From Escherichia phage HK639: DNA of 49,576 nucleotides. Position 1 is the first letter of the stretch, and each line of letters begins with the position of its first letter. Shown here in pieces: positions 9,065-44,437 of this stretch. A model generated the notes under the pieces. The model searched no databases. It was not told where the DNA came from and was given only the letters and a program-made list of their open reading frames with translations. Location: sequence record NC_016158.1; one strand, written 5' to 3'. The translations under genes and the position numbers were made by a program.

Positions 9065-9997
9065 ATGGCATTCGCAATCCCTAACGGCTCGCGTGTGAAC
9101 GTGGCCAAGGCCTATCAAGCCCCAATCACCTTTACCGCAGCCTCTAACGCGACGGAATGCGAACTGACCGTTGCATCGGCCTCCGGCATTCTGGCCGGTG
9201 ACGTAGTTCAGGTGAGTTCCGGCTGGTTAAAGCTCGATAACATGGTGCTGCGCGTAAAATCGGTGACCAGTAATAAAATCGTGCTGGAAGCACTCGATAC
9301 TACCGACACCACCAAATTCCCGGCAGGCACTGGCGCGGGAACGCTGCGCAAAATCGACTCATGGATCACCATGCCTCAGGTGATGACACTATCAACTGAA
9401 GGTGGTGACCAGCAGACCATCAGTGTGCAGTTCCTCGAAGATGACAAAGCGCGAACTATCCCAACGTTTAAAAACGCGGTGGTTCAGGTTTACACCTTTG
9501 CGCATGACCCTCAACTGGCGATCTACAAACGCCTCATTGACCTGGATGACTCCAGCGATACAACGGCGGTCTGGTTCCATAACCCACGCGGCAAAGCCGA
9601 TCGTTTCTACTCAGCCAAAGTATCGTTCCAGCGCGTACCGCGCACGGAAATCAACGCCGTGGAAAGTAACGAAGCGCGTATGAACTTCGAATCGGACATG
9701 CAGATTTACCCGATCGCCGATTCATCCGTGACGCCGCTGGCGTTCCTGACCGACCTGCCGGCCACCAAATCGGTTGCCACAGGCGCAGCGCTGGATCTGG
9801 CGGTGGTAATGAAGGGCGGCTCAGCACCTTACACCTACGTATGGAAGAAAGGCAGCACCGCTATTCCGGGCAAAACCGCATCGACGTTCAACATTTCGTC
9901 TGTCGCATCCGGTGATGCTGGCGTTTACACCTGTGAAGTCACCGACGCCGCGGGAAAAACCATCACCTCGGCTGCGTGTACTGTCACGGTCAGCTAA
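9065..9997 (+). CDS. V: Major tail tube protein with C-terminal Ig-like domain
   Basis: 310 aa upstream of the G/T chaperones. C-terminal YTYVWKKGSTAIPGKTASTFNISSVASGDAGVYTCEVTDAAGKTITSAACTVTV is a classic Ig-like (W...Y.C) module. Confidence 0.75.
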   Translation: MAFAIPNGSRVNVAKAYQAPITFTAASNATECELTVASASGILAGDVVQVSSGWLKLDNMVLRVKSVTSNKIVLEALDTTDTTKFPAGTGAGTLRKIDSWITMPQVMTLSTEGGDQQTISVQFLEDDKARTIPTFKNAVVQVYTFAHDPQLAIYKRLIDLDDSSDTTAVWFHNPRGKADRFYSAKVSFQRVPRTEINAVESNEARMNFESDMQIYPIADSSVTPLAFLTDLPATKSVATGAALDLAVVMKGGSAPYTYVWKKGSTAIPGKTASTFNISSVASGDAGVYTCEVTDAAGKTITSAACTVTVS

Positions 9998-10005
9998 CCA
10001 CTCGG

Positions 10006-10027
10006 GCCCGGTACGCCGGGCTTTTTT
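10006..10027 (+). terminator. Intrinsic terminator
   Basis: GCCCGG-TACG-CCGGGC followed by TTTTTT. Confidence 0.75.
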
Positions 10028-10140
10028 ATGCGCATCGCACGCGCACATCGAAGAAAGTCTTTCAGCTGTGAGCCTGGGCAAACCGTTAACTTTCGGCGGA
10101 TTTGCCGTGCGACAGGCTCACGTCTAAAAGGAAATGAGAA
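10022..10140 (+). promoter_or_regulatory. Structured leader, copy A (paralogue of 47243-47378)
   Basis: Homologous by eye to the second copy. 11-nt phased repeat GCGCATCGCAc/GCGCACATCGA. Hairpin closed by GTGAGCCTG (10068-10076) and CAGGCTCAC (10113-10121). Shared CTAAAAGG...ATGAATAA at the end. Confidence 0.55.
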
Positions 10141-10821
10141 ATGAATAAAGATATGGTGCTCATATTACGTGACGATGGCCATGAGCTTCAAACGGCCGAG
10201 TATACAGCCCGCTACGATCGTAATGGGAAAAGAACGATTGCCATGGGGCTTTATGAAAAGAGTCCATTCAGTTTCCGCGTTGAACGATTAACAGAGGATA
10301 AATCCACGGGATTGGCTATTGGCGTCAAAGAAGGCGAGGTCTTTATCAAGGATGCCTTTATTGGCAGTGGCATTGTATCTGCGAACTATAACGTGAAGTT
10401 GAATATCAACAACGTTGGCAAATTACACGAAGCTGGCATGACCCTCGGTGTTGAAGATGGCCAGAGCAACGTTGAGTTTATGGCTGACCGCTTTAAGGTG
10501 CATGAAGCCGCTCAATCAGCCAGCAATAATGAAGAGACGGCCTTCAATGGTGATCTGGCTTTTGGTGGTTTCCCTGGGGCAATTAGTCATGATGGAGCTA
10601 ATCCCGCTGATGGCAATAATGCCACCAAAACCAGCCTCAATGATGAGATGTGCGAAGCCATTATCTCCGCCGTACGCGAAAGCGATTTGTTCGCATCCCT
10701 CCAGGCAAAGATTGATGCGCAAACAGCTTCAGTAGCTGGCCTGCAACAGGCGATGCACGAAGCGGTGAACGATGCTCTTCGCAATGCGCTGAAGCCAGGC
10801 GGTCTGCTGTACAAACGATAA
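10141..10821 (+). CDS. Tail-tip (J C-terminal domain) paralogue, moron-like insertion between V and G
   Basis: ANYNVKLNINNVGKLHEAGMTLGVEDGQSNVEFMADRFKV aligns by eye with J residues AMYNIKVGVSSNGQYYAAGMGIGVENTPSGMQSQVIFLADRFAV. C-terminal LKPGGLLYKR echoes the tape-measure end LKPGGMIYNFSKGR. Confidence 0.6.
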   Translation: MNKDMVLILRDDGHELQTAEYTARYDRNGKRTIAMGLYEKSPFSFRVERLTEDKSTGLAIGVKEGEVFIKDAFIGSGIVSANYNVKLNINNVGKLHEAGMTLGVEDGQSNVEFMADRFKVHEAAQSASNNEETAFNGDLAFGGFPGAISHDGANPADGNNATKTSLNDEMCEAIISAVRESDLFASLQAKIDAQTASVAGLQQAMHEAVNDALRNALKPGGLLYKR

Positions 10822-10848
10822 CACCCCCATCACGCACTCGAATATTCA

Positions 10849-10873
10849 ACCCGCTACGGCGGGTTTTTCTTTT
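10849..10873 (+). terminator. Intrinsic terminator
   Basis: ACCCGC-TACG-GCGGGT followed by TTTTTCTTTT. Confidence 0.75.
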
Positions 10874-10886
10874 CTAAGGAACCGAA

Positions 10887-11225
10887 ATGACCAAATTTTC
10901 TCTGATCCCCAACCCAACTTTTTCTGTGACCGCGAGCATTCCGCGCGCTGGCGCCGAAGACGGCAAGCTGACGTTCACTTTCCGCCATAAAACGTTGGAA
11001 GAGCTGCGCTCCATGGATGCGAAGATGCAAAAGGCTGCGGAAGGTAAAAAGGCTGTTATCGAGCCGCAAGCTGACTATCTCATGGAAATTGTCGAAGGAT
11101 GGGCTCTTCCTGACGAGTTTACCCGCGAAAACGTTATTGTTCTCCTGCAAAACTATCCGCGTGCTTTTGACAGCATCGGCATGGCGTACACCAAAGAGCT
11201 GATGGGGATTCGCGAAAAAAACTGA
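10887..11225 (+). CDS. G: Tail assembly chaperone G
   Basis: 112 aa directly upstream of the tape measure, ends at the slippery site. Confidence 0.8.
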   Translation: MTKFSLIPNPTFSVTASIPRAGAEDGKLTFTFRHKTLEELRSMDAKMQKAAEGKKAVIEPQADYLMEIVEGWALPDEFTRENVIVLLQNYPRAFDSIGMAYTKELMGIREKN

Positions 11226-11530
11226 GGCAGGTCGCCGCAGCGTTGTATACGCCGGGACCGACGCTTGCGGAGCTGAGCGCTTTTGGTTTAACGCCTGAAG
11301 ATGTTGAGGAAGAGGTGGGGATCCTGCCCTCGGTATGGGAGTCCTTCACCATCTTCTCTGCGCTGGCTACCCAGTGGCGCGTCGGCGGGAGCGGGGCGAC
11401 CGGCCTTGATTACAACGTTCTCCCCTGGATGTTCAAGTTACACGGGGTTGAGGATGCGGCGGCCTGCATGGCTGACCTTCAAATTATGGAAAGCGAGGCT
11501 CTCAAGGTAATGCATAAGGAGACGAAATAA
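10887..11530 (+). CDS. T: Tail assembly chaperone G-T fusion via programmed -1 frameshift
   Basis: The -1 frame stays open from the slip site to 11530 and reads ...EKKLRQVAAALYTPGPTLAELSAF..., matching track ORF 11243-11530. The stop overlaps the tape-measure start (TAATG). Confidence 0.75.
11216..11222 (+). promoter_or_regulatory. -1 ribosomal frameshift slippery heptamer A_AAA_AAC
   Basis: In-frame X_XXY_YYZ motif 1 codon before the G stop. Confidence 0.75.
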
Positions 11531-14500
11531 TGACAGACCAAATCGCCTCGATTACTTTGCGGGCCGATGTATCCGACCTGAAAACAGCCAGCAATGAACT
11601 GGATAGGCTCGGCGAGGCGGCGGCGGGCGCCGTAGATAAAGCGGATGATTTAAATAGCGTGTTTCGCGCTGGGGCCGATGCCGGCAAGCAGAGCGCAGCG
11701 GCTTTATGGGAGCAACAAAAATCCTTCAAGGGGCTGCTTGAAAGCATAGATCCAACTCTCGCAGCCTTAGGTAAGCTTGATGATCAGCAGCAAAAACTGC
11801 GGACAATTCATAGCAAGGGGTTACTCGATACTGAGGAGTTTACTCATTATCAAAAAATCCTGGACGACACCCGTCTCAAGCTGACCGACACTGGCGAAGC
11901 GGCGGCGCGTGCTCAGGCCGAATTAGCCGCTACCCAGGCGGCAGAGAAGCAGTCCACAGCGTTAAAGAACCTTCTTGGATCCATCGACCCGACTATCCGC
12001 GCGTTCAATTCATTGGATGAACAGCACGCACAGCTGGTGGCCCATTTCGAAGCTGGGCGCATTAACGGTGCTCAGTTCGAGCACTTCAACACAATCCTTA
12101 ACCAGACGCGTGAGCGCCTCTCTGGTGTCGCAGACGTACTACCAGAAGCGCTATCCCGGCAGGAAGCTGCTGCCCGGCGCGCTGGAATCTCCGTTGGTCA
12201 GTACAGCGCAGCAATGCGTACGCTTCCGGCTCAGTTCACGGATATCGCCACGCAGTTAGCTGGTGGGCAGTCGCCGTTCCTGATTCTGCTGCAACAGGGC
12301 GGGCAGATTAAAGACCAGTTTGGCTCGGTTCAGGGGGCGCTGTCCGGCGTCGGAGAATACATCCGCAGTATGGCTGGGATGATTAACCCAACCACGATCG
12401 CACTTGGTGGGCTGATTGGGACGATCGGCCTGCTGGCTGCCGCAGCGTATAACTCCTCGGAGCAATTTGACCAGGTGGCACGCTCTGTCATCATGATGGG
12501 TGGGGCTGGCTTCTCCTCAATGCAGCAGCTCAACCAGGCCGCTGAGGAAGTGGCTGGCAAGACGAATACATCGATCAGCTCCACCGTCGATACGCTGGTT
12601 ACGTTGAACGATACTGGCAAATATACCGCCAGCCAGATGAAACAGGTCGCAACGACCATCACCCTCATGGGTAAGGCCGGAAATGATACCAAAGCGGCAA
12701 TGGCCGACTTCGGAAAGATTGTCAGCGATCCGGTTAAAGGGCTGGCCAGCCTCAATGAGCAATATGGTTTCGTTGATGAGGCCATGATTAAGCACATCAT
12801 CCAGCTTCGTAAGCAGAAGGGTGAGCAGGCCGCTGTTACCGAAGCCATTAACCTGTTTGCTGGCGTCATGGAAAAACGCGCACAGGAGACTATTGAGGCA
12901 ACGGACAATATTGGCAAAGCATGGACTGGGCTAAAAGCATTCGCCTCTGACACTTTCGGCCAAATCGGAATTACTGTGCGGGCTTGGGGAAATCAGGTTA
13001 TCGAGGTGTTCAAGTTATTGAGCACTTCGTTTGAAGCCCTTTTCGTCAAGATGAAAGAGGTCTCCCTTGAAATTATGGGGGGGATGATCACCGGGTTCAC
13101 GGATATTGCTAACAAACTTCCGGGCGGGGAAACTCTCATCAAATCCATGGGGTTTGATGGGCTCGCTGAGAGCGTTGCCAAGAACAGAGAGGCAGCAAGC
13201 AAGGAATATACTCAGCTTACCGCTGAGTACAACAAGCACATTGCTAATCTCAGTAAATCCCAGTGGCAATGGGAGGAGGAAGCGAAGAATGGTCTTGGCG
13301 GGGGGGTAAAAGGCACAGGCTCAGTTGATCGGCAAACTAAGGATGCCGTTTCAAAGCTTGCTGAGGACTCAGCCAAAAAGACCAAAGAGGCGAAAGCCAC
13401 TCTGGAAGCTGGCGATCGCACCCTGGAGAACTACCGCGCCCAGGCCAGAACGTTAACCGAAACGCTCGAGACCCTCCGACAAACTGGCGAAACCCACGCT
13501 AAAAACACCGAGTTCAGTAAACAGCAATCTCGATTCGCTGAATTGGATGAGGCAGCCAAAACCCGCGCGCTGACTGCTCAGGAAAAATCTTTACTGTCGA
13601 GCCGTGAGGCGATTCTGAACGCCGCCAAGGTGGTTGATCAGAAGAACAAGGAAGTAGAGGCGCAGCAGAAGATTAACGGCCTGGCGCAGCAGGCGAATAA
13701 ATACGTCACGCAGATGTCGGAAAAAACCGATGCGTTGCGTGATAGTGCAGGCCTCAGCAGTCGGCAAACGCAGCGCATGATGGAAGAGGCGCAGCTTCGC
13801 CAGGGCTGGCTCAACGGTGGGGGTAAACTTGAGGATGCCGGGTATGAAAAAGAACTGGCGGCTCTCAGGAAATATTACGCCGAAGAGGACAAATTGCGGG
13901 GCGACTGGAAAGCGGGGGCTGTTGCTGGATGGAATGAATATCTGGACGCGGCCACGAACACTTACGACGCCGTTAAAAACGTTGCCAGTTCCACGCTGAC
14001 CGGCCTGAGCAACATGCTGACTGAGCTTATGACAACTGGCACCGCGTCAGTTAAAGAGTTCGGCAAGTCGATGCTCAAGATGATCCTCGAGATAACCAAC
14101 CAACTTATAGTGGCCTATACAGTACAGGCCGCGATGGGCTGGATAAGCGGTGGCAGCAAAGGCGGGAGCACACCAGGGGGATCTTACGCGAACGCTGCCG
14201 CTGGCCTAACTTTTAACGCTAAAGGCGGTGTTTATGATTCGCCCGGGCTCAGTAAGTACGTTAATGGGGTATACGACTCTCCCCAGTATTTTACTTTCCA
14301 GGGGGCGTCCAAGTTTGCGAAGGGCGGTGTATTCGCAGAGGCTGGTGCTGAAGCAATCATGCCACTTACTCGGGACTCCGCCGGACGGTTGGGCGTACGC
14401 GCCCAGGGCGGTGGCGGTATGGCTCCGGTTATTAATATCACCGTTAACGTTGATGCTGGTGGTTCGGTCACAACCCAAACATCCAGTTCCGGTGATGCTA

Positions 14501-14604
14501 TGGGCCGTGCCCTTGCTGATGAAATGCAGAACGCTGCGTTGCAGGTTATCCAGAAGCACCTTAAGCCTGGTGGCATGATTTACAACTTTAGCAAAGGTAG
14601 ATAG
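11530..14604 (+). CDS. H: Tape measure protein
   Basis: 1024 aa, long helical repeats, hydrophobic glycine-rich central segment, follows G/T. Confidence 0.9.
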   Translation: MTDQIASITLRADVSDLKTASNELDRLGEAAAGAVDKADDLNSVFRAGADAGKQSAAALWEQQKSFKGLLESIDPTLAALGKLDDQQQKLRTIHSKGLLDTEEFTHYQKILDDTRLKLTDTGEAAARAQAELAATQAAEKQSTALKNLLGSIDPTIRAFNSLDEQHAQLVAHFEAGRINGAQFEHFNTILNQTRERLSGVADVLPEALSRQEAAARRAGISVGQYSAAMRTLPAQFTDIATQLAGGQSPFLILLQQGGQIKDQFGSVQGALSGVGEYIRSMAGMINPTTIALGGLIGTIGLLAAAAYNSSEQFDQVARSVIMMGGAGFSSMQQLNQAAEEVAGKTNTSISSTVDTLVTLNDTGKYTASQMKQVATTITLMGKAGNDTKAAMADFGKIVSDPVKGLASLNEQYGFVDEAMIKHIIQLRKQKGEQAAVTEAINLFAGVMEKRAQETIEATDNIGKAWTGLKAFASDTFGQIGITVRAWGNQVIEVFKLLSTSFEALFVKMKEVSLEIMGGMITGFTDIANKLPGGETLIKSMGFDGLAESVAKNREAASKEYTQLTAEYNKHIANLSKSQWQWEEEAKNGLGGGVKGTGSVDRQTKDAVSKLAEDSAKKTKEAKATLEAGDRTLENYRAQARTLTETLETLRQTGETHAKNTEFSKQQSRFAELDEAAKTRALTAQEKSLLSSREAILNAAKVVDQKNKEVEAQQKINGLAQQANKYVTQMSEKTDALRDSAGLSSRQTQRMMEEAQLRQGWLNGGGKLEDAGYEKELAALRKYYAEEDKLRGDWKAGAVAGWNEYLDAATNTYDAVKNVASSTLTGLSNMLTELMTTGTASVKEFGKSMLKMILEITNQLIVAYTVQAAMGWISGGSKGGSTPGGSYANAAAGLTFNAKGGVYDSPGLSKYVNGVYDSPQYFTFQGASKFAKGGVFAEAGAEAIMPLTRDSAGRLGVRAQGGGGMAPVINITVNVDAGGSVTTQTSSSGDAMGRALADEMQNAALQVIQKHLKPGGMIYNFSKGR

Positions 14605-14680: not shown

Positions 14681-15094
14681 ATGCAGAAACTTATTTTGGT
14701 CATGGGCATCATCGCTTTGGTTGGATGTGCCACCAAGCCAATTTCAACTGAGCAGGCTAAGCCAGCGCCAGCGAAACAAATTCTTGATAACACTCTCTTT
14801 ACGAAAAAGGCTGGCACCGGGGAGGTTGTGATTAAACGTGATTCTGGTTATGTGGGGAGCGCTTGTTTGACGAGGGTTTATGTCGATGGGCGTGAAGTTG
14901 CCGATCTTGACCCTGAACAAAAAATCACAATCTACCCCACCTTGGGGGATCACATCTTCAGCGCGTGGCCAAAAGGAATGTGTGGTGGGGGTATGAGTGA
15001 ACAGGCAGGTAAAGTAATCGAAGGTAAGGTATTAACTTACAGGATAGGTTACGGCTCTGGTTCAGAATTTGGGATTTACCCAACCGCATTTTAA
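14681..15094 (+). CDS. Lipoprotein (moron)
   Basis: Signal peptide with lipobox LVG-C16; SD AAGGAAG; own terminator; inserted after the tape measure, where lambda has no gene. Confidence 0.75.
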   Translation: MQKLILVMGIIALVGCATKPISTEQAKPAPAKQILDNTLFTKKAGTGEVVIKRDSGYVGSACLTRVYVDGREVADLDPEQKITIYPTLGDHIFSAWPKGMCGGGMSEQAGKVIEGKVLTYRIGYGSGSEFGIYPTAF

Positions 15095-15130
15095 CCACTA
15101 ACCAAGACCTCCCGGGCCTATAGCCCAACA

Positions 15131-15155
15131 AGCCTCGCTGACGCGGGGCTTTTTT
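15131..15155 (+). terminator. Intrinsic terminator
   Basis: AGCCTCGC-TGAC-GCGGGGCT followed by TTTTT. Nested inside a longer inverted repeat AACCAAGACC...GGTCTTGTTGGTT. Confidence 0.75.
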
Positions 15156-15570
15156 GTCGGCGCAAGGCTCGGTCTTGTTGGTTAAAATCTGAGCGCCTCT
15201 TTCAGATGGGGCCAAATACTACAGCAATCTTTTGGTTGGTGCATTGCTATCTGGACACGGTTTTTGTGCAAAAAGTGCTATTGAGCAAGATTTTGACCGT
15301 TTGAAGCGAACCATAGGTTCAACCTATCTCCTGTGATCGTGACAATAGTTTACTATTACCTGAGGGGCATTTTCTGCGAAAATGCCTTTAACTTGCATAG
15401 TGGCCGCCTCTAAGTTCGTCGAACGTGAATGGATCTTGAGCGATACGCCCGTTGCTCAAAAATGACGAATGGTATTAAGATGAATAACAGAACATGAATT
15501 TTATAGGGCTGAAGAATCTTATCTTCGGCCTTTCTTGTCAGAGGTGCTCCAAGGAAACTGGGAGGACGTT

Positions 15571-16143
15571 ATGCCTAAGAATGAAAAAGATAAGCGAAAT
15601 ATGCCTTTTTTTGATGCCTTTAAGACTACTGCCGCTATTGGTTTGCTGATGCAGCAAACAGCCGCATTACATTGCTCTGAAGGCCCGCAGCCACATCCAT
15701 CGTTTTACACTCTTCAGGCAAGTGTGGCAGCGAACGCGCACATGATTAGCCCTGAGATGGAGGAGTCCCTCGAATTCATCAAGGGGCTGAAAGAGATGTT
15801 ACAGAAAGGTTACGTTCTCCTTTCTGATGCTCACTTAAATGAGCGTGACTATTATATTCGCAAGCTGGACCCTGCTCAAACGGATCTGGTTGAACTTCAG
15901 CTACGCGGACTTGAGGGTGGTTTGAAAAACGTCTTTAAGAATTGCTCTGAGGCGGACAAAGAACTTCTGAAACCGTATTTGATGACGATTGCTGAAGCCC
16001 GCTCAGCTTCTACAAAGTTGAATCATTTAATTGCCCAAATGACTAAAGCTGCTGACAATTTCACCAGCGAGATTGATATGGAAGGGCTGCGTTCACTGGC
16101 AAAATATGGCACAGAGACCTTTTTCTCTGGTCGTTTCCATTGA
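15571..16143 (+). CDS. Unknown 190-aa helical protein, candidate cognate antitoxin/partner of the YafO-like toxin
   Basis: ATG 15571 preceded by GGAGG (track TTG 15535 is less likely). Stop is 8 nt before the toxin start. I see no resemblance to YafN/Phd. Confidence 0.55.
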   Translation: MPKNEKDKRNMPFFDAFKTTAAIGLLMQQTAALHCSEGPQPHPSFYTLQASVAANAHMISPEMEESLEFIKGLKEMLQKGYVLLSDAHLNERDYYIRKLDPAQTDLVELQLRGLEGGLKNVFKNCSEADKELLKPYLMTIAEARSASTKLNHLIAQMTKAADNFTSEIDMEGLRSLAKYGTETFFSGRFH

Positions 16144-16151
16144 GGTGAAGG

Positions 16152-16589
16152 ATGCACGTAACTGTCACATATAATGTTAAAAGTTACGACTTCTTCTTTA
16201 AACCTATCTTCCTTGAGTTTCCGCACTTGAAACAATCATTACTTGATGATTTTTCAGCATATAAGGCCACTAATCAGCTACCCCACTACTTTGGAAGAGA
16301 TACTGATTATGCAAGGCCAGCAGATATTCAGGGTTCTGGCCTTATGCATATCCATTTAGGTTTGCATGAGAACAAACTGCTAACACCTCAAGGTAAGCAG
16401 ATAGACTCCAGTACGCCACAGTGGGATAGAACCTCAGATTCGGCTTTGCTATATGCTCAGAATCTATTTGATGAAAATCAATATTCTCTTATCGCTCTCT
16501 TCGACCCGTTAGCGCACAGTAAAGCTCAGAATTTTGACCGAATGAGACTATTGGCATCGTATGCTTTAGAGTTTAAGAATCAAATCTAA
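16152..16589 (+). CDS. YafO-family toxin (ribosome-dependent mRNA interferase family)
   Basis: By-eye alignment to recalled E. coli YafO in three blocks. DFSAYKATNQLPHYFGRDTDY matches DFISYKRDGVLPDIFGRDALY. MHIHLGLHEN matches AHIHLANEN. RTSDSALLYAQNLFDENQYSLIALFDPLAH matches RTNDEAHLVYCQGAFDEQAWLLIAILKPEPH. Confidence 0.75.
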   Translation: MHVTVTYNVKSYDFFFKPIFLEFPHLKQSLLDDFSAYKATNQLPHYFGRDTDYARPADIQGSGLMHIHLGLHENKLLTPQGKQIDSSTPQWDRTSDSALLYAQNLFDENQYSLIALFDPLAHSKAQNFDRMRLLASYALEFKNQI

Positions 16590-17797: not shown

Positions 17798-18529
17798 ATG
17801 AATAAAACCATAATGGCAGCTATCCGGGTGCATGCACTGGAGGAATCCCCGCGTGAGTGCTGTGGCTTCGTTATTCAGTCTGGCCGTCGCCAGCGCTACA
17901 TTCCCGTGCCGAATACGCACGAAAATCCGACAGAGCATTTCCGCATCGACGGCGAGCACTGGGCTAACGCCGAAGATATCGGGACGATTATTCGCGTCAT
18001 CCACTCCCACCCTGGCGACGGTGCCCGGCCTATTCCGTCCGATCTGGACCGACAACAGTGCAATAACTCCGGCGTGGTCTGGGGCATTTACGCGCCGGAC
18101 AGCGATGAATACGCCGAGATAATGCCGGAGTCGGTGCCGCTTATTGGGCGTCCGTTTATCCTGGGCTCGAATGACTGCTGGGGGCTGATTATGGACTGGC
18201 ACGCCATTCAGGGCGTCACGCTGAACGATTTTCGCGTCGATTACCCGTGGTGGGAAAGCCAGTACCCGGACAATCTCTATTTCGAAAACTGGGAGCGGGA
18301 AGGGTTTGTCGAATGCGACCCCGCGCCAGGCTGCATGGTCATCATGCAGGTTGAATCCGCTAAGTGGAACCACGCGGGGATCATCACTGAAGAAGGTGAA
18401 CTACTCCACCATCTTTACGGCCAGCCTTCATGCATTACCCCATATTCCAGAGGCTATTTCAAAGACCGCACGATGATCTGCGTTCGTCACAAAAACCTGC
18501 CGCAGGAGATAAAGCCATGGCGCGTTTAA
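17798..18529 (+). CDS. K: Tail tip assembly protein K (MPN/JAB + NlpC/P60 domains)
   Basis: ECCGF...HSHP MPN-type motif, then the GSNDCWGL cysteine-peptidase motif; lies between L and I. Confidence 0.85.
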   Translation: MNKTIMAAIRVHALEESPRECCGFVIQSGRRQRYIPVPNTHENPTEHFRIDGEHWANAEDIGTIIRVIHSHPGDGARPIPSDLDRQQCNNSGVVWGIYAPDSDEYAEIMPESVPLIGRPFILGSNDCWGLIMDWHAIQGVTLNDFRVDYPWWESQYPDNLYFENWEREGFVECDPAPGCMVIMQVESAKWNHAGIITEEGELLHHLYGQPSCITPYSRGYFKDRTMICVRHKNLPQEIKPWRV

Positions 18530-19116
18530 CCACGATTCGATTGTATGGCGCACTGGGCGCCCGGTTTGGGCGCGTGCACCGGCTGGCAGTGCAGACATCT
18601 GCCGAAGCTGTCAAAGCTCTGTGTATCAACTTCGACGGACTGGAAAGCTTTCTCATGAATGCCAAAAAAAACGGCATGACCTTCGCGGTGTTTCGTGGCA
18701 AACGCAACATCGGAGAACAGGATTTCAAGGAGCTGGGTGGTGACAGCGATATTCGTATTGCTCCTGTAATGGAGGGGGCAAAAAAAGCAGGATTGTTTCA
18801 GACGATCCTTGGCGCTGTAATGGTCGTTGCTGGCATTATCACAGGAGTGGCAACCGGCTGGACTGGCGCAGGTTTGACATTTGGTGCTGGACTTATCATG
18901 TCGGGCGCATCAATGATGGCCGGCGGCATTTACCAGATGCTTTCGCCACAGCCAAAAGGGTTACAGGGGCGAGACGATCCTGACAATAAACCCTCTTATG
19001 CCTTCGGTGGTTCAGTGAATACCCTTGCGATGGGAAACCCGGTCGCGCTTCTTTATGGTGAGCGCGAGATCGGCGGCGCTATCATCAGTGCAGGCATAGT
19101 CGCTGAAGACATCTGA
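18517..19116 (+). CDS. I: Tail assembly protein I
   Basis: ATG 18517 (MARLTTIRLYG...) overlaps the K end; C-terminal glycine-rich hydrophobic region as in lambda I. Confidence 0.8.
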   Translation: MARLTTIRLYGALGARFGRVHRLAVQTSAEAVKALCINFDGLESFLMNAKKNGMTFAVFRGKRNIGEQDFKELGGDSDIRIAPVMEGAKKAGLFQTILGAVMVVAGIITGVATGWTGAGLTFGAGLIMSGASMMAGGIYQMLSPQPKGLQGRDDPDNKPSYAFGGSVNTLAMGNPVALLYGEREIGGAIISAGIVAEDI

Positions 19117-19171: not shown

Positions 19172-22100
19172 ATGGAAGCGATCACTGGTGCAAAGGGTGG
19201 CAGCCAGAAGCAGCACACACCTGTAGAACAGCCCGATTCGGCGCAGTCAATGGCGCGCTGCCGCATGCTGCTGGCGCTCGGGGAGGGGGAGTTTGCTGGT
19301 GGCCTGGATGCGACCCGGATATTCCTGGACGGTACGCCGTTGGGAAACCCCGACGGAACGATGAATTTTGAAAATGTGTCATGGGATTTCCGGCCTGGCA
19401 CACAGACCCAGACACCAATACCGGGATTCCCTGCAGTCGAGAATGAAACTACGGTTGGCGTATCGCTGACAAAGGCCACACCATGGACGCGCGCGCTGAG
19501 TAATACCCAGATTGACGCGGTTCTCGTTCGTATTGGTATACCTGGATTGCAGCAGCAGGAAAACGACGGAGACATTGTCGGAACTACTGTCACATATCAC
19601 ATCGACATTGCGGTTGATGGCGGGGCATACCAGACAATGCTAACCAAAACGGTTACTGAAAAACTCAGTTCGCTGTATGAGCTGACCCATCGCATTAATC
19701 TTCCGAAAGCCAGTACGGGCTGGCAGATTCGCGTGGTACGCGACACTGACGACAGCACCAGCCAGATGTTGCAGAATAAAACGCAGGTACAGGCAATCAC
19801 TGAGGTGATTGATGCGCGCCTGCGCTATCCCCATACGGCGCTGCTGTATGTGTCGTTCAACGCCAAATCGTTCAACAATATCCCGAAGATTTCCTGTAAA
19901 CCGAAGGGGCGTATTATCCGCATCCCTTCGAATTACGATCCGATAGCCCGAACCTATAGCGGCACATGGGACGGGACATTTAAGTGGGGCTGGACGAATA
20001 ACCCAGCGTGGATCTGGTTCGATGTGCTCACTGAGCCGCGTTTCGGACTTGGCCGCCGTGTGACGCCAGAAATGCTCGATAAATGGGAGCTTTATCGCAT
20101 AGCGCAGCGCTGTGATCAGCTTGTACCAGATGGAAAAGGCGGTAGCGGTACAGAGCCGCGCTTCATGTTTGACGTGTACATTCAGGCGCAGGCCGACGCC
20201 TGGCAGGTGATCAAGGATATCGCCGCAGGCTTTAACGGCATGACGTTCTGGGGCAACAACATGTTCAATGTTGTCTCTGACATGCCGGCGGACACGTCGA
20301 AGCTGCAAATCCTTACCCGCGCTTCGGTGGTGGGCAAGCCGGTTTACTCGAGCGGCAGTGAAAAGACCCGCTTCTCCAGCGCGCTGATTAACTTCAGCGA
20401 CCCTGACAATCACTATCAGGACCGCACGACAGCGGTGATGTTCCCGGATCTGGTTAAGCAGTTCAAGTTTAAGCAGACGCAGATCACCGCAATCGGCTGT
20501 ACGCGCGAGAGCGAAGCGCAGCGCCGTGGCGGGTGGGCGGTGTATTCCAACTCACTCGACAGGATGATTACGCTACAGACCGGGCTTGATGGCTATGTCT
20601 ACGTGCCGGGTACCGTATTTGCATTTGCCGACGAACGCCTTTCAGGGCGTGTTTATGGTGGGCGCATCACCGAGTACAATTCCGGGATTAAGGCAGTGAC
20701 CACTGACCGCGGTACCAGCGCGGTGGCTGGCGATACACTGATGATTCGCACGCAGGGCGGTGCCGTTGAAAGCAGAGTGATTCAGGCCGTAAACGGCACG
20801 CAGCTGGTGGTTGCCACGCCTTTCACGGCAGAGCCGTTACCAAACGCTGTATTCGTCATCGATGCCGGGCAGTTGCGCCTGCAATACTTCCGCGTTACGA
20901 ACCTGAGATTTGATGATGAAGAAAACACCTTCACAATCACCGGGGCTGAGTATAACGCATCAAAATATGATGCGGTCGATAACAATGCCCGCCTGGATGC
21001 GCCGCCAGTCAGCCTGTTACCGACTGGTGTTGTAAGCCAGCCTGCCAACATCGCGGTAGCGAGCTATGACGCAGTACGCCAGGGGCAGCGAGTGGCCACC
21101 TTGACTGCATCATGGGATGCGCCGGTCGACAAGAACGGCAAACCACAGGCAGATGTCATAGCCTATCGCGTGCAGTGGAAGCGCGGCGACAATGAGTGGG
21201 TTAACGTGCCGGATACAGGGCTGCGCAATATCGAAGTTCCTGGCATCTTCGATGGTGATTATCTGGTACGTGTACGCGCCATCAACTCAGGAGGTGCGTC
21301 TAGCCTCTGGACAACGTCTGCTCTTACACACCTAAAGGGGCGCGCTGGTGACGTTCCAAAACCTGTAGGGCTAACAGCATCTGAAGATGTCGTTTTTGGG
21401 ATCAATATCACTTGGGGATTCCCTGCTGATACCTCAGACACATTAAGCACAGAGCTGCAATACAGCGTTACGGCTGACGGTTCAAATCCTATTTTGTTGG
21501 CGTCTGTACCTTATCCTCTAAAACTTTATCAGCAGATGGGCCTTAAGGCCGGTCAGGAATTCTGGTACCGCGCACAGCTGGTTGACCGAACCGGTAACGA
21601 ATCAGGATACACAGAATGGGTTCGTGGGCAGGCAAGTATAGATGTTTCTGATGTCTCCAGTGTGATTTTGGAGGACATGAAGGAATCTCAGACGTTCAAA
21701 GACCTGATCGAGAGCGCAGTGGACAGCAATGCAAAAATTGCTGGCATGGCTGATGATATCCTGCAGGCGAACAATCAGCTCGAACAGCAGGCGCTGGATA
21801 TTCAGGAAAATTCTGATGCTCTGGCGCAAGCTGCGGTGAAGATCGACGAAATGTCTGTCTCCATGGACGGCATGACGGGAGGCGTGAAGAACTCGGCCAT
21901 AGCTATCATCCAGGGCAACCTCGCACAGGTGGCAGCGCGTAAAACACTGACTGCGTCGGTCGCCGGTAACAGCGCGCAGCTTGACCGAATTGATGAAGTG
22001 ATCGTTAACGAGAAGGAGGCAACGGCGCGCGCTCTGCTGAGCCTGCAGACGGACGTTAACGGCAACAAGGCATCCATCAACAGCCTCAATCAGACGTTCT

Positions 22101-22636
22101 CGGATTACCAGCAGGCTATGGCCACGCAGGTAAACAGCATCACGGCGACCGTCAATGGCCACACTTCTGCGATCACCACCAACGCGCAGGCCATTGCCAA
22201 CGTCAACGGCGACCTGAAGGCGATGTACAACATCAAGGTTGGTGTCTCCAGCAACGGGCAGTATTACGCCGCGGGGATGGGGATCGGCGTGGAGAATACG
22301 CCATCCGGCATGCAGTCGCAGGTTATCTTCCTGGCTGATCGCTTCGCAGTCACCACGGCGGCCGGAAACAGCGTGGCTTTGCCATTCGTGATCCAGAACG
22401 GGCAGACATTCATCCGGGCCAGCTTCATTCAGGACGGCACCATTGACAACGCCAAAATCGGCAACTATATCCAGTCGAATAATTATGTGGCTGGATCTGC
22501 AGGCTGGAAGCTTGATAAGGGAGGGACGTTCGAAATTAACGGTGTGGCCGGGGGCGGGAGGATGCTGATATCCAGCACTCTCATTCGCATCTACGACAGC
22601 AACAACGTGCTGCGCGTCAGAATGGGGTTATGGTAA
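19172..22636 (+). CDS. J: Host specificity / central tail fibre protein J
   Basis: 1154 aa after I; fibronectin-like middle region (YRVQWKRGDNEW...); coiled C-terminal part with a DUF1983-like segment. Confidence 0.9.
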   Translation: MEAITGAKGGSQKQHTPVEQPDSAQSMARCRMLLALGEGEFAGGLDATRIFLDGTPLGNPDGTMNFENVSWDFRPGTQTQTPIPGFPAVENETTVGVSLTKATPWTRALSNTQIDAVLVRIGIPGLQQQENDGDIVGTTVTYHIDIAVDGGAYQTMLTKTVTEKLSSLYELTHRINLPKASTGWQIRVVRDTDDSTSQMLQNKTQVQAITEVIDARLRYPHTALLYVSFNAKSFNNIPKISCKPKGRIIRIPSNYDPIARTYSGTWDGTFKWGWTNNPAWIWFDVLTEPRFGLGRRVTPEMLDKWELYRIAQRCDQLVPDGKGGSGTEPRFMFDVYIQAQADAWQVIKDIAAGFNGMTFWGNNMFNVVSDMPADTSKLQILTRASVVGKPVYSSGSEKTRFSSALINFSDPDNHYQDRTTAVMFPDLVKQFKFKQTQITAIGCTRESEAQRRGGWAVYSNSLDRMITLQTGLDGYVYVPGTVFAFADERLSGRVYGGRITEYNSGIKAVTTDRGTSAVAGDTLMIRTQGGAVESRVIQAVNGTQLVVATPFTAEPLPNAVFVIDAGQLRLQYFRVTNLRFDDEENTFTITGAEYNASKYDAVDNNARLDAPPVSLLPTGVVSQPANIAVASYDAVRQGQRVATLTASWDAPVDKNGKPQADVIAYRVQWKRGDNEWVNVPDTGLRNIEVPGIFDGDYLVRVRAINSGGASSLWTTSALTHLKGRAGDVPKPVGLTASEDVVFGINITWGFPADTSDTLSTELQYSVTADGSNPILLASVPYPLKLYQQMGLKAGQEFWYRAQLVDRTGNESGYTEWVRGQASIDVSDVSSVILEDMKESQTFKDLIESAVDSNAKIAGMADDILQANNQLEQQALDIQENSDALAQAAVKIDEMSVSMDGMTGGVKNSAIAIIQGNLAQVAARKTLTASVAGNSAQLDRIDEVIVNEKEATARALLSLQTDVNGNKASINSLNQTFSDYQQAMATQVNSITATVNGHTSAITTNAQAIANVNGDLKAMYNIKVGVSSNGQYYAAGMGIGVENTPSGMQSQVIFLADRFAVTTAAGNSVALPFVIQNGQTFIRASFIQDGTIDNAKIGNYIQSNNYVAGSAGWKLDKGGTFEINGVAGGGRMLISSTLIRIYDSNNVLRVRMGLW

Positions 22637-33693: not shown

Positions 33694-33765
33694 TGGTGGA
33701 GTGCTCCGGATTCGAACCGAAGTTTTCATGGGTGATCAGTCCATGCAGGCCCAGCCACACCCCAC
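33694..33765 (-). ncRNA. tRNA-like element (canonical T-arm and ...CCA end, reduced D-arm, 9-nt anticodon-like loop)
   Basis: Minus strand reads GTGGGGTG-TGGCTGGGCCTG-CATGG-ACTGATCAC-CCATG-AAAAC-TTCGG-TTCGAAT-CCGGA-G-CACTCCAC-CA. An 8-bp closing stem is possible. It does not fit a standard cloverleaf. Confidence 0.4.
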
Positions 33766-44362: not shown

Positions 44363-44437
44363 GGGTCAGAAGCACAGCGGTTGTGCGTTCGGCTGTTAAC
44401 CGAATGGTCGAAGGTTCGAATCCTTCCTGTCCCGCCA
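44363..44437 (+). tRNA. tRNA-Asn (GUU)
   Basis: Hand-folded cloverleaf: acceptor GGGTCAG/CTGTCCC (one T-T mismatch), D-arm GCAC-AGCGGTT-GTGC, anticodon arm TTCGG-CTGTTAA-CCGAA, T-arm GAAGG-TTCGAAT-CCTTC, G-CCA. A at position 8 is unusual. Confidence 0.75.

Follow-up and report, generated by a model that had tools for sequence, protein, structure and literature searches.

Proteins that block the assembly of phage tails, and the antidotes to them, were described only in 2024, and few such antidotes are known. Tab, an 83-amino-acid (aa) protein of a Pseudomonas phage that is encoded between the terminase genes, targets the tape measure protein (Patel et al. 2024, PMC10884400). Tai proteins also block tail assembly, and they target J, with escape mutations mapping to the J C-terminal region; TaiEcA of phi80 is counteracted by AtiEcA, which is expressed from the Q-dependent late operon (He et al. 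2024, PMC11364771). The latter authors explicitly anticipated anti-Tai versions aimed at non-cognate Tai systems. Here we analyze an open reading frame (ORF) of 226 codons at positions 10141-10821, plus strand, of Escherichia phage HK639 (NC_016158.1; the whole stretch analyzed, 49,576 nucleotides (nt) in length, is referred to as the window). The ORF lies between a V-like tail tube gene and a G-like tail assembly chaperone gene. We tentatively suggest that its product could be a late-expressed counter-defence protein, which would shield the phage's own tail-tip assembly from the blockers of rival elements.

Tai and Tab/anti-Tab are moron-encoded blockers and antidotes (PMC11364771, PMC10884400), and they have in common with the HK639 ORF the arena in which they act (the tail-tip initiator, J and the tape measure), the type of genomic hotspot, and a logic of defence versus late counter-defence. 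The comparison with Tab is one of description, and TaiEcA shows no sequence similarity to the ORF; the ORF was considered as a TaiEcA homologue and this was rejected (BLASTP E=0.69; no PADLOC match). If our suggestion is correct, a family present in hundreds of enterobacterial prophages, including phi80 gp66 of the laboratory strains DH10B and DH5alpha, would join the conflict over tail assembly, and it would work by mimicking, at the molecular level, J and the tape measure, both of which are components of the tail tip. Mimicry of this sort is undescribed for the Tai and Tab systems.

Modules of the ORF product

Sequence comparison resolves the ORF product into three borrowed modules: an AtiEcA-like N-terminus, two strands' worth of the J beta-prism, and a C-terminal tail like that of tape measure proteins. 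Residues 2-36 align with residues 18-53 of AtiEcA at 44% identity over 36 aa (BLASTP E=5e-6), with MV-I-LRDDG--LQ among the shared positions. When a hidden Markov model (HMM) of the family N-terminus was searched against 8,765 ORFs, AtiEcA was the best match from outside the family (E=1.1e-4), and the next best had an E-value of ~1. Comparison of the family N-terminus with AtiEcA by hhalign gave a probability of 86% (E=4.7e-6), with controls at 0.1-0.2%.

The gene order in phi80 is orf63 (TaiEcA, minus strand), orf64 (AtiEcA), a conserved leader, and orf66, and Tai homologues are found upstream of the leader in other loci too. AtiEcA, annotated as a 'Fur-regulated protein', and the HK639 ORF are both in late-operon orientation, and in phi80 the Ati gene stands directly upstream of the same leader that precedes the ORF. 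AtiEcA is a stand-alone protein of 63-76 aa that is accompanied by a divergently transcribed Tai gene, whereas in HK639 the corresponding domain is fused to a body of ~190 aa resembling J and the tape measure, and no Tai gene accompanies it anywhere in the window. The orf66 product, phi80 gp66 (PHI80_66, 'ORF x171.28; similar to N15 gp59'), is like the ORF in its leader, its C-terminal PGG tail and the order of its two J-like blocks, but begins with a different N-terminal domain ('MGHKIITLSGAATDVLYALFF...'). Adjacent genes of phi80, encoding Ati and the gp66-type body, appear to be fused in the window ORF, which suggests a gene-fusion link between them. The ORF N-terminus, or Ati itself, was also considered as a mimic of the extreme C-terminus of J, and this was rejected (pairwise E=0.93; the family HMM finds no J; hhalign 0.2-0.5%).

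A different small protein, of 111 aa, abuts the leader in 15 loci (e.g., L004:2656-2991 and, in Salmonella phage SP-016, L007:1655-1990) and is not present in the window. The ~25 residues at its N-terminus copy the ~23 at the C-terminal end of the J proteins of the SP-016/AsXd-1 type (BLASTP E=1e-5; hhalign 93.8%), and in SP-016 it occupies the 'Ati position' beside a Tai homologue with 28% identity to TaiEcA (E=3e-19). We take it for an apparent mimic of the J end and a candidate anti-Tai protein.

A sequence-only reading of the window had claimed that the ORF contains a segment closely matching the C-terminal part of the phage's own J, together with a second J-like block in permuted order. 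Pairwise alignment bears out the first of these: aa 77-124 (block A) are 44% identical to J aa 1013-1064 (E=5e-9), and PF09327 (Phage_Tail_Tip, formerly DUF1983) scores 37.7 bits on block A, above its gathering cutoff of 22, the ORF covering model positions 14-69 of 139 (40%) and hence only part of the domain. The second also holds, at the level of the family. The pairwise match of aa 55-79 (block B) to J aa 1067-1091 is weak (E=0.038), but the family HMM finds block A, followed ~60 residues downstream by block B, in all five J proteins tested; the block B matches are individually weak (iE 0.2-5), yet consistent in position. Block B of phi80 gp66 matches PF09327 positions 74-106. The swap of block order, B-A in the ORF and A-B in J, is therefore real.

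The resident J is no closer to the ORF than the J proteins of other phages. Bit scores for block A were 45.1 with phi80 J, 43.5 with the resident J, 40.4 with AsXd-1 J and 40.0 with mEp237 J, and with four of the six J proteins in the comparison the J-like block shares an identity of ~42-46%. An origin of the ORF as a paralogue or copy of this phage's own J is rejected because of this equal similarity. What survives of the earlier description is a free-standing, soluble protein with motifs derived from J and from the tape measure; it belongs to an old mosaic family and is not a recent paralogue of the J C-terminal domain. Nor does the J-like part correspond to the receptor-binding end of J: aligned to solved structures, block A falls on lambda J 858-934, which is the start of the beta-sheet prism, or 'central straight fibre', below the alpha-helical shaft (PMC11101478). 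The ORF shares with J ~50 beta-prism residues (block A) and the weaker block B, and it lacks the hub, FNIII-A (PF24801, PF13550) and receptor-binding parts of that 1154-aa protein. It is also sited between V and G, rather than after gene I.

These results bear on whether the ORF product could act in superinfection exclusion at the entry stage, or as a receptor decoy, blocking adsorption or DNA injection of related phages; an exclusion factor acting on incoming phages was one of the functions proposed by the sequence-only reading. The presence of J-derived sequence would fit, and lambdoid tail regions are known to carry exclusion genes such as cor. However, the J-like block is prism and not receptor-binding domain, PADLOC returned no match, and nothing in the product, a soluble, acidic and cytoplasmic protein, points to the envelope, where exclusion proteins of the Cor and HK97 gp15 types are located: signal peptide, lipobox and membrane helix are all lacking (maximum Kyte-Doolittle hydropathy 0.9, with a charged N-terminus). 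We find a role at the cell surface barely credible. An AlphaFold2 monomer model of the ORF product, built from a 25-sequence alignment, had a mean predicted local distance difference test score (pLDDT) of 36 and was uninformative, as would be expected of a fibre-like protein dependent on trimerisation. Searching the PDB by sequence with the ORF gave a weak match to the F2-pyocin fibre alone (E=0.29).

The third module is the C-terminal helix and KPGGLLY tail. That LKPGGLLYKR echoes the C-terminus of the resident tape measure had been noticed from the sequence; the pairwise match is weak (E=0.005), and it is at the family level that the homology becomes evident. A tail HMM was built from the last 48 residues of family members and searched against the 8,765 six-frame ORFs from all loci. 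Its only significant matches outside the family were tape measures, at their extreme C-termini, with E-values from 1.6e-6 (mEp237) to 6e-4 (window-type tape measures ranging from 9e-5 to 6e-4). In the reciprocal search, an HMM made from five tape-measure lineages matched 125 small ORFs at their C-termini (best E=3e-9), and hhalign aligned the family tail with the tape-measure tail over 37 columns with 97.9% probability (E=3e-13). Lambda gpH ends in ...IQTQMRDGGLFSGGGR, the window tape measure in ...VIQKHLKPGGMIYNFSKGR, and the ORF in ...LRNALKPGGLLYKR; the KPGGLLY of the ORF is almost identical to the KPGGMIY of the resident tape measure. The ORF has no counterpart to the other ~1000 residues of a tape measure, and the TMP_2 and Tape_meas_lam_C domains were found in the resident tape measure and not in the ORF.

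Inside the lambda tail tip, gpH residues 818-849 (gpHC) assemble into a trimeric coiled coil, which sits on the plug formed by the gpI trimer (PMC12617516; PMC11101478). The ORF has the homologous helix, followed by a [K/R/Q]-P/D-G-G-hydrophobic-aromatic tail, at its extreme C-terminus. By analogy with lambda, the tape-measure tail, and hence the ORF tail too, would probably dock on the window's gpI homologue. The homology thus offers a specific predicted partner, gpI, for the protein.

A tail that docks on gpI could also serve as an address tag, the ORF product being an accessory component of the virion or tail tip, or an ejected cargo, with its N-terminal domain carried in the particle and possibly delivered. 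A variable N-terminus joined to a constant C-terminal tail is what one would expect if the tail were a targeting signal, and the gene is found among tail genes in about 18 loci. Moreover, lambda has six copies of the tape measure, only three C-terminal fragments of which are seen on gpI (PMC12617516). On the other hand, most copies of the gene are in the post-lysis moron hotspot, outside the structural genes, the gene is missing from close relatives, and the phi80 homologue is dispensable. To judge from the lambda structures, the tape measure would fill the tail lumen and leave little room for a trimeric prism. We consider incorporation into the virion quite improbable. A more elaborate version, in which the tail would load interchangeable N-terminal payloads (Ati-like, FNIII-like and others) onto the gpI plug for carriage in the virion and first delivery into a new cell, strikes us as very improbable indeed; were it true, the family would be the siphophage counterpart of capsid-targeted internal proteins, pre-empting defences resident in the cell.

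An accessory cassette with a portable leader

The ORF is part of an accessory insertion behind the tail-tube terminator, a cassette of ~840 base pairs (roughly 10028-10870) that consists of a leader, the gene and a terminator of its own. In the related prophage of E. coli ET729, V is followed by the same terminator and then directly by G, without the cassette. The V terminator hairpin is therefore native to the V-G junction, and it marks the left edge of the insertion. The right edge is the cassette terminator, behind which the native V-G spacer resumes at once in the alignment with ET729. The earlier reading had placed between V and G a 226-aa ORF with its own leader and terminator; the ORF was confirmed, the leader is real, and both flanking terminators were recovered in our scan. 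The cassette terminator mirrors the V terminator, with the stem bases swapped (CCCGCTACGGCGGG vs. CCCGGTACGCCGGG); two look-alike hairpins bracket the cassette and may bear on its insertion or exchange.

Morons, in the sense of Juhala and Hendrix, are genes that are absent from close relatives, deviate in base composition from their surroundings, and have their own terminator and a promoter of their own that is active in the lysogen. The cassette resembles them in its absence from ET729, its deviant content of guanine plus cytosine (GC; ~45% within the ORF versus 55-60% in the flanks), and its own terminator.

The leader is a portable module, found in loci L010-L128 as well as in the window. 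It is 93-97% identical to non-coding DNA of phi80 (upstream of gp66), mEp237, mEp213, mEp043, mEp390 and others, with more than 90% conservation at nearly every position, and the coding sequences diverge immediately past the ATG while the leader is conserved. A 30-mer of the leader was found in at least 119 viral contigs, in all but one of which an ATG follows 39-42 nt downstream (41 nt in the window), and 111 of 5,426 complete E. coli genomes carry the leader. Usually, an intrinsic terminator whose sequence varies stands immediately in front of it. The leader might serve as a promoter, an untranslated region, a processing site or a recombination arm. In a minority of cases it is followed by genes of other kinds, which encode a 485-aa protein resembling glycosyltransferase family 2 (GT2), an HNH endonuclease, or one of several small ORFs. 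Rfam gave no match in the leader or the cassette. A long bulged hairpin is predicted in the leader; the fold of 141 nt has a minimum free energy of -42.9 kcal/mol and a z-score of -1.75, which is not statistically distinctive, and leaders vary too little for a covariation test of the hairpin.

In some loci of the post-lysis slot (L011, L012, L014, L021, L024, L027, L048 and L050), paired inverted repeats of the form TTATCCCC-N5-6-GGATAA are found 60-130 nt upstream of the leader, immediately ahead of the terminator in front of it. The second repeat overlaps TATAAA, and the pair may be an operator/promoter unit; these repeats are not present in the window. The 485-aa protein, whose match to GT2 is weak, commonly lies behind the gp66-type gene in the same slot (L008:2122-3579 and about 50 other loci), stands directly behind the leader in mEp390, and is likewise absent from the window.

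Over its entire length the ORF matches phrog_29765, of unknown function (residues 1-226 on model positions 1-226 of 230; E=4e-148). We found 657 homologues, with identical copies in Enterobacter hormaechei, and at 50% identity the family, all of whose members are small proteins, falls into 81 clusters. It is old, mosaic and widespread in lambdoid prophages, and takes in PHROG 29765, 13555 and 18217, phi80 gp66 and, by annotation, proteins like N15 gp59. The tape-measure-like PGG tail is its constant hallmark: 83 of the 120 leader-linked ORFs recovered carry it, behind at least six different N-terminal domains. Family genes occupy two genomic slots. The majority are in the post-lysis/pre-packaging hotspot, as is phi80 gp66 (post-lysis/pre-cos), and about 18 loci, including the window, have the gene in the V-G slot. 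E. coli DH10B (L134, 1367728-1372839), DH5alpha and NEB 5-alpha are cloning strains with a phi80 segment that includes TaiEcA, the leader and orf66.

In PGAP annotation the members of the family are called 'phage tail tip fiber protein' or 'DUF1983 domain-containing protein'. Neither the ORF nor the other family proteins match any NCBIfam model, so the name appears to derive from the Pfam domain alone, and we regard the tip-fibre label on these small proteins as an artefact of domain transfer. Literature searches found no paper on the phi80 gp66-type family.

A mosaic of this kind might be a recombination relic, a fossil pieced together from fragments of J and the tape measure that has no function at present. 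Some copies do appear to be decaying, and those of L040 and L015 have unrelated sequence where the PGG tail should be, apparently through frameshifts or truncations. However, the ratio of non-synonymous to synonymous substitution rates (dN/dS) is 0.27-0.46 across variants, indicating purifying selection on the ORF, and the leader, Shine-Dalgarno sequence and C-terminal tail are all conserved. The sheer number of homologues and clusters also speaks against decay, and we hold a relic to be exceedingly improbable.

Possible protection of tail assembly, and alternatives to it

No sigma-70 promoter was found on the plus strand of the leader by a consensus scan and inspection by eye. Since there is no recognisable promoter and the ORF is in late-operon orientation, we infer that it is made together with the tail proteins during lytic growth. 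Under the counter-defence explanation that we tentatively favour, the Ati-like domain would bind Tai-type inhibitors that are produced within the same cell by other prophages, phage-inducible chromosomal islands (PICIs) or P4-like satellites. Trimerisation would be due to the beta-prism piece, and the tape-measure-like tail would bring the protein to the gpI/J initiator, where Tai would strike, the net effect being protection of the phage's own tail assembly. Because the window carries no Tai gene, the ORF would be an 'orphan' anti-Tai directed against non-cognate systems. Alternatively, the protein may act as a decoy that diverts inhibitors able to recognise J or the tape measure. A decoy was among the three functions put forward by the sequence-only reading, beside an alternative tip component and an exclusion factor, and it comes nearest to our explanation; its strongest support, the AtiEcA-like N-terminus, had gone unseen.

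Several points weigh against a counter-defence role. The match to Ati is short, at ~36 residues, and its hhalign probability is 86% rather than above 95%. Searches of the window by tblastn and iterated profile found no Tai homologue, which leaves the ORF without a cognate target in cis. In many family members the N-terminal domain is a different one or the J block is missing, and the Ati-like domain therefore cannot explain the family as a whole. Among the phi80 single deletions of orf62, orf64, orf65 and orf66 reported by He et al. (2024, PMC11364771), that of orf64 alone lowered the titre, so the gp66-type body is not needed against the cognate Tai; two excerpts of the strain list of that paper do not show an orf66 single-deletion mutant. 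The absence of a promoter was judged by a consensus scan, with which an activator-dependent or non-sigma-70 promoter is compatible. A tail nearly identical to that of the resident tape measure could equally compete with the tape measure, and it is from comparison of sequences that the function of the family is argued.

The same modules could instead make a weapon. In that case a lysogen would produce the ORF product as a dominant-negative mimic against superinfecting lambdoid phages, its tail occupying the gpI site of the tail-tip initiator or its prism block co-assembling with the J of the superinfecting phage; no tail tube would form, and tailless heads would be released, as with Tab and Tai, which provide the precedents. 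The homology of the ORF tail to the gpI-binding end of tape measures agrees with this, as do the moron-like terminators and low GC content and the hotspot locations shared with Tai. So does Salmonella phage SP-016, whose family gene has a strong tape-measure-like tail (E=4e-9) even though its own tape measure lacks the tail motif and the phage has no gpI homologue, indicating that the resident tail is not the target. However, no promoter was found, and the gene sits within the resident tail operon, directly upstream of G/T/H. With a tail so close to the resident's, the protein would poison its own phage, and the cassette has no partner immunity gene. HK106, which has a phi80-type tail, plates normally on a phi80 lysogen from which taiEcA is deleted while orf66 is retained (He et al. 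2024, PMC11364771), which argues against the homologue being a lysogen-expressed weapon. Finally, the resemblance of the N-terminal domain is to an anti-defence protein rather than to a defence protein, and PADLOC recognises nothing in the ORF. We judge a weapon unlikely.

A position beside the chaperone genes G/T, and homology to those parts of J and the tape measure that come together at the tip, would also suit a non-essential assembly helper. Such a protein would bind gpI or J transiently in the cytoplasm, as a holdase or a template for trimerisation, and improve the yield of tail-tip initiator without being incorporated; late expression would fit this as well. The patchy, moron-like distribution and highly mosaic N-terminus do not, and neither does the presence of the gene in SP-016, which has neither gpI nor the tape-measure motif. 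The phi80 titre was reportedly normal after deletion. A helper therefore seems very unlikely to us, and protection of tail assembly from rival inhibitors is the explanation that we retain.

The locus and its surroundings

The features on which the analysis draws are collected in Table 1.

Table 1. Positions in the window of the cassette, its parts, and the genes with which it was compared.
Feature	Position	Strand	Evidence or remark
Tail tube gene (V-like)	9065..9997	+	PF08813 E=3e-45, Ig_3/I-set; phrog_584 major tail protein; adjoins cassette on left
Intrinsic terminator after V	10004..10028 (hairpin 10004-10023)	+	8-bp stem, T-run; terminator scan
Leader, 113 nt	10028..10140	+	Ends at Shine-Dalgarno and ATG
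Predicted long bulged hairpin in leader	10059..10130	+	Outer pairs take in first Shine-Dalgarno bases (AAAG)
ORF, 226 aa	10141..10821	+	ATG start, AGGA Shine-Dalgarno; phi80 gp66 / N15 gp59-like family
N-terminal domain, aa 2-36	10144..10248	+	Homologous to AtiEcA (phi80 orf64)
Block B, aa 55-79, GEVFIKDAFIGSGIV	10303..10377	+	Upstream of block A in ORF, downstream of block A in J
Block A, aa 77-124	10369..10512	+	BLASTP E=5e-9; PF09327 37.7 bits; top of J beta-prism
Low-complexity linker, aa 125-165	10513..10635	+	Absent from 202-aa family variants (alignment)
C-terminal helix and KPGGLLY tail, aa 189-225	10705..10815	+	Homologous to extreme C-terminus of lambda-type tape measures
Cassette terminator	10848..10873 (10848-10865 plus T-run)	+	Intrinsic; terminator scan; right edge of insertion
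Tail assembly chaperone gene (G-like)	10887..11225	+	PF08748 E=9e-28; adjoins cassette on right
Tape measure gene	11530-14604		
Resident tape measure C-terminal tail, aa 988-1024, ...VIQKHLKPGGMIYNFSKGR	14491..14601	+	Segment resembled by ORF tail
gpI homologue (tail assembly protein I)	18430..19116	+	PF06805 E=5.6e-6
J gene	19172-22636		
Resident J region, aa 1013-1091	22208..22444	+	Block A, then block B

Some further observations were made in the window. Residues 217-310 of the tail tube protein are a C-terminal Ig-like domain (Pfam Ig_3/I-set), with matches to Hoc-like PHROGs. A second island of low GC content (40-48%) lies in the tail operon at 14681-16589, between the tape measure gene and an M-like gene; it encodes a 137-aa lipoprotein (phrog_890) together with phrog_8416 and phrog_1651 proteins of unknown function, and could be a further cluster of morons. 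The window also has two predicted tRNA genes, tRNA-Asn(GTT) at 44363-44437 on the plus strand and tRNA-Ile(GAT) at 33694-33763 on the minus strand.

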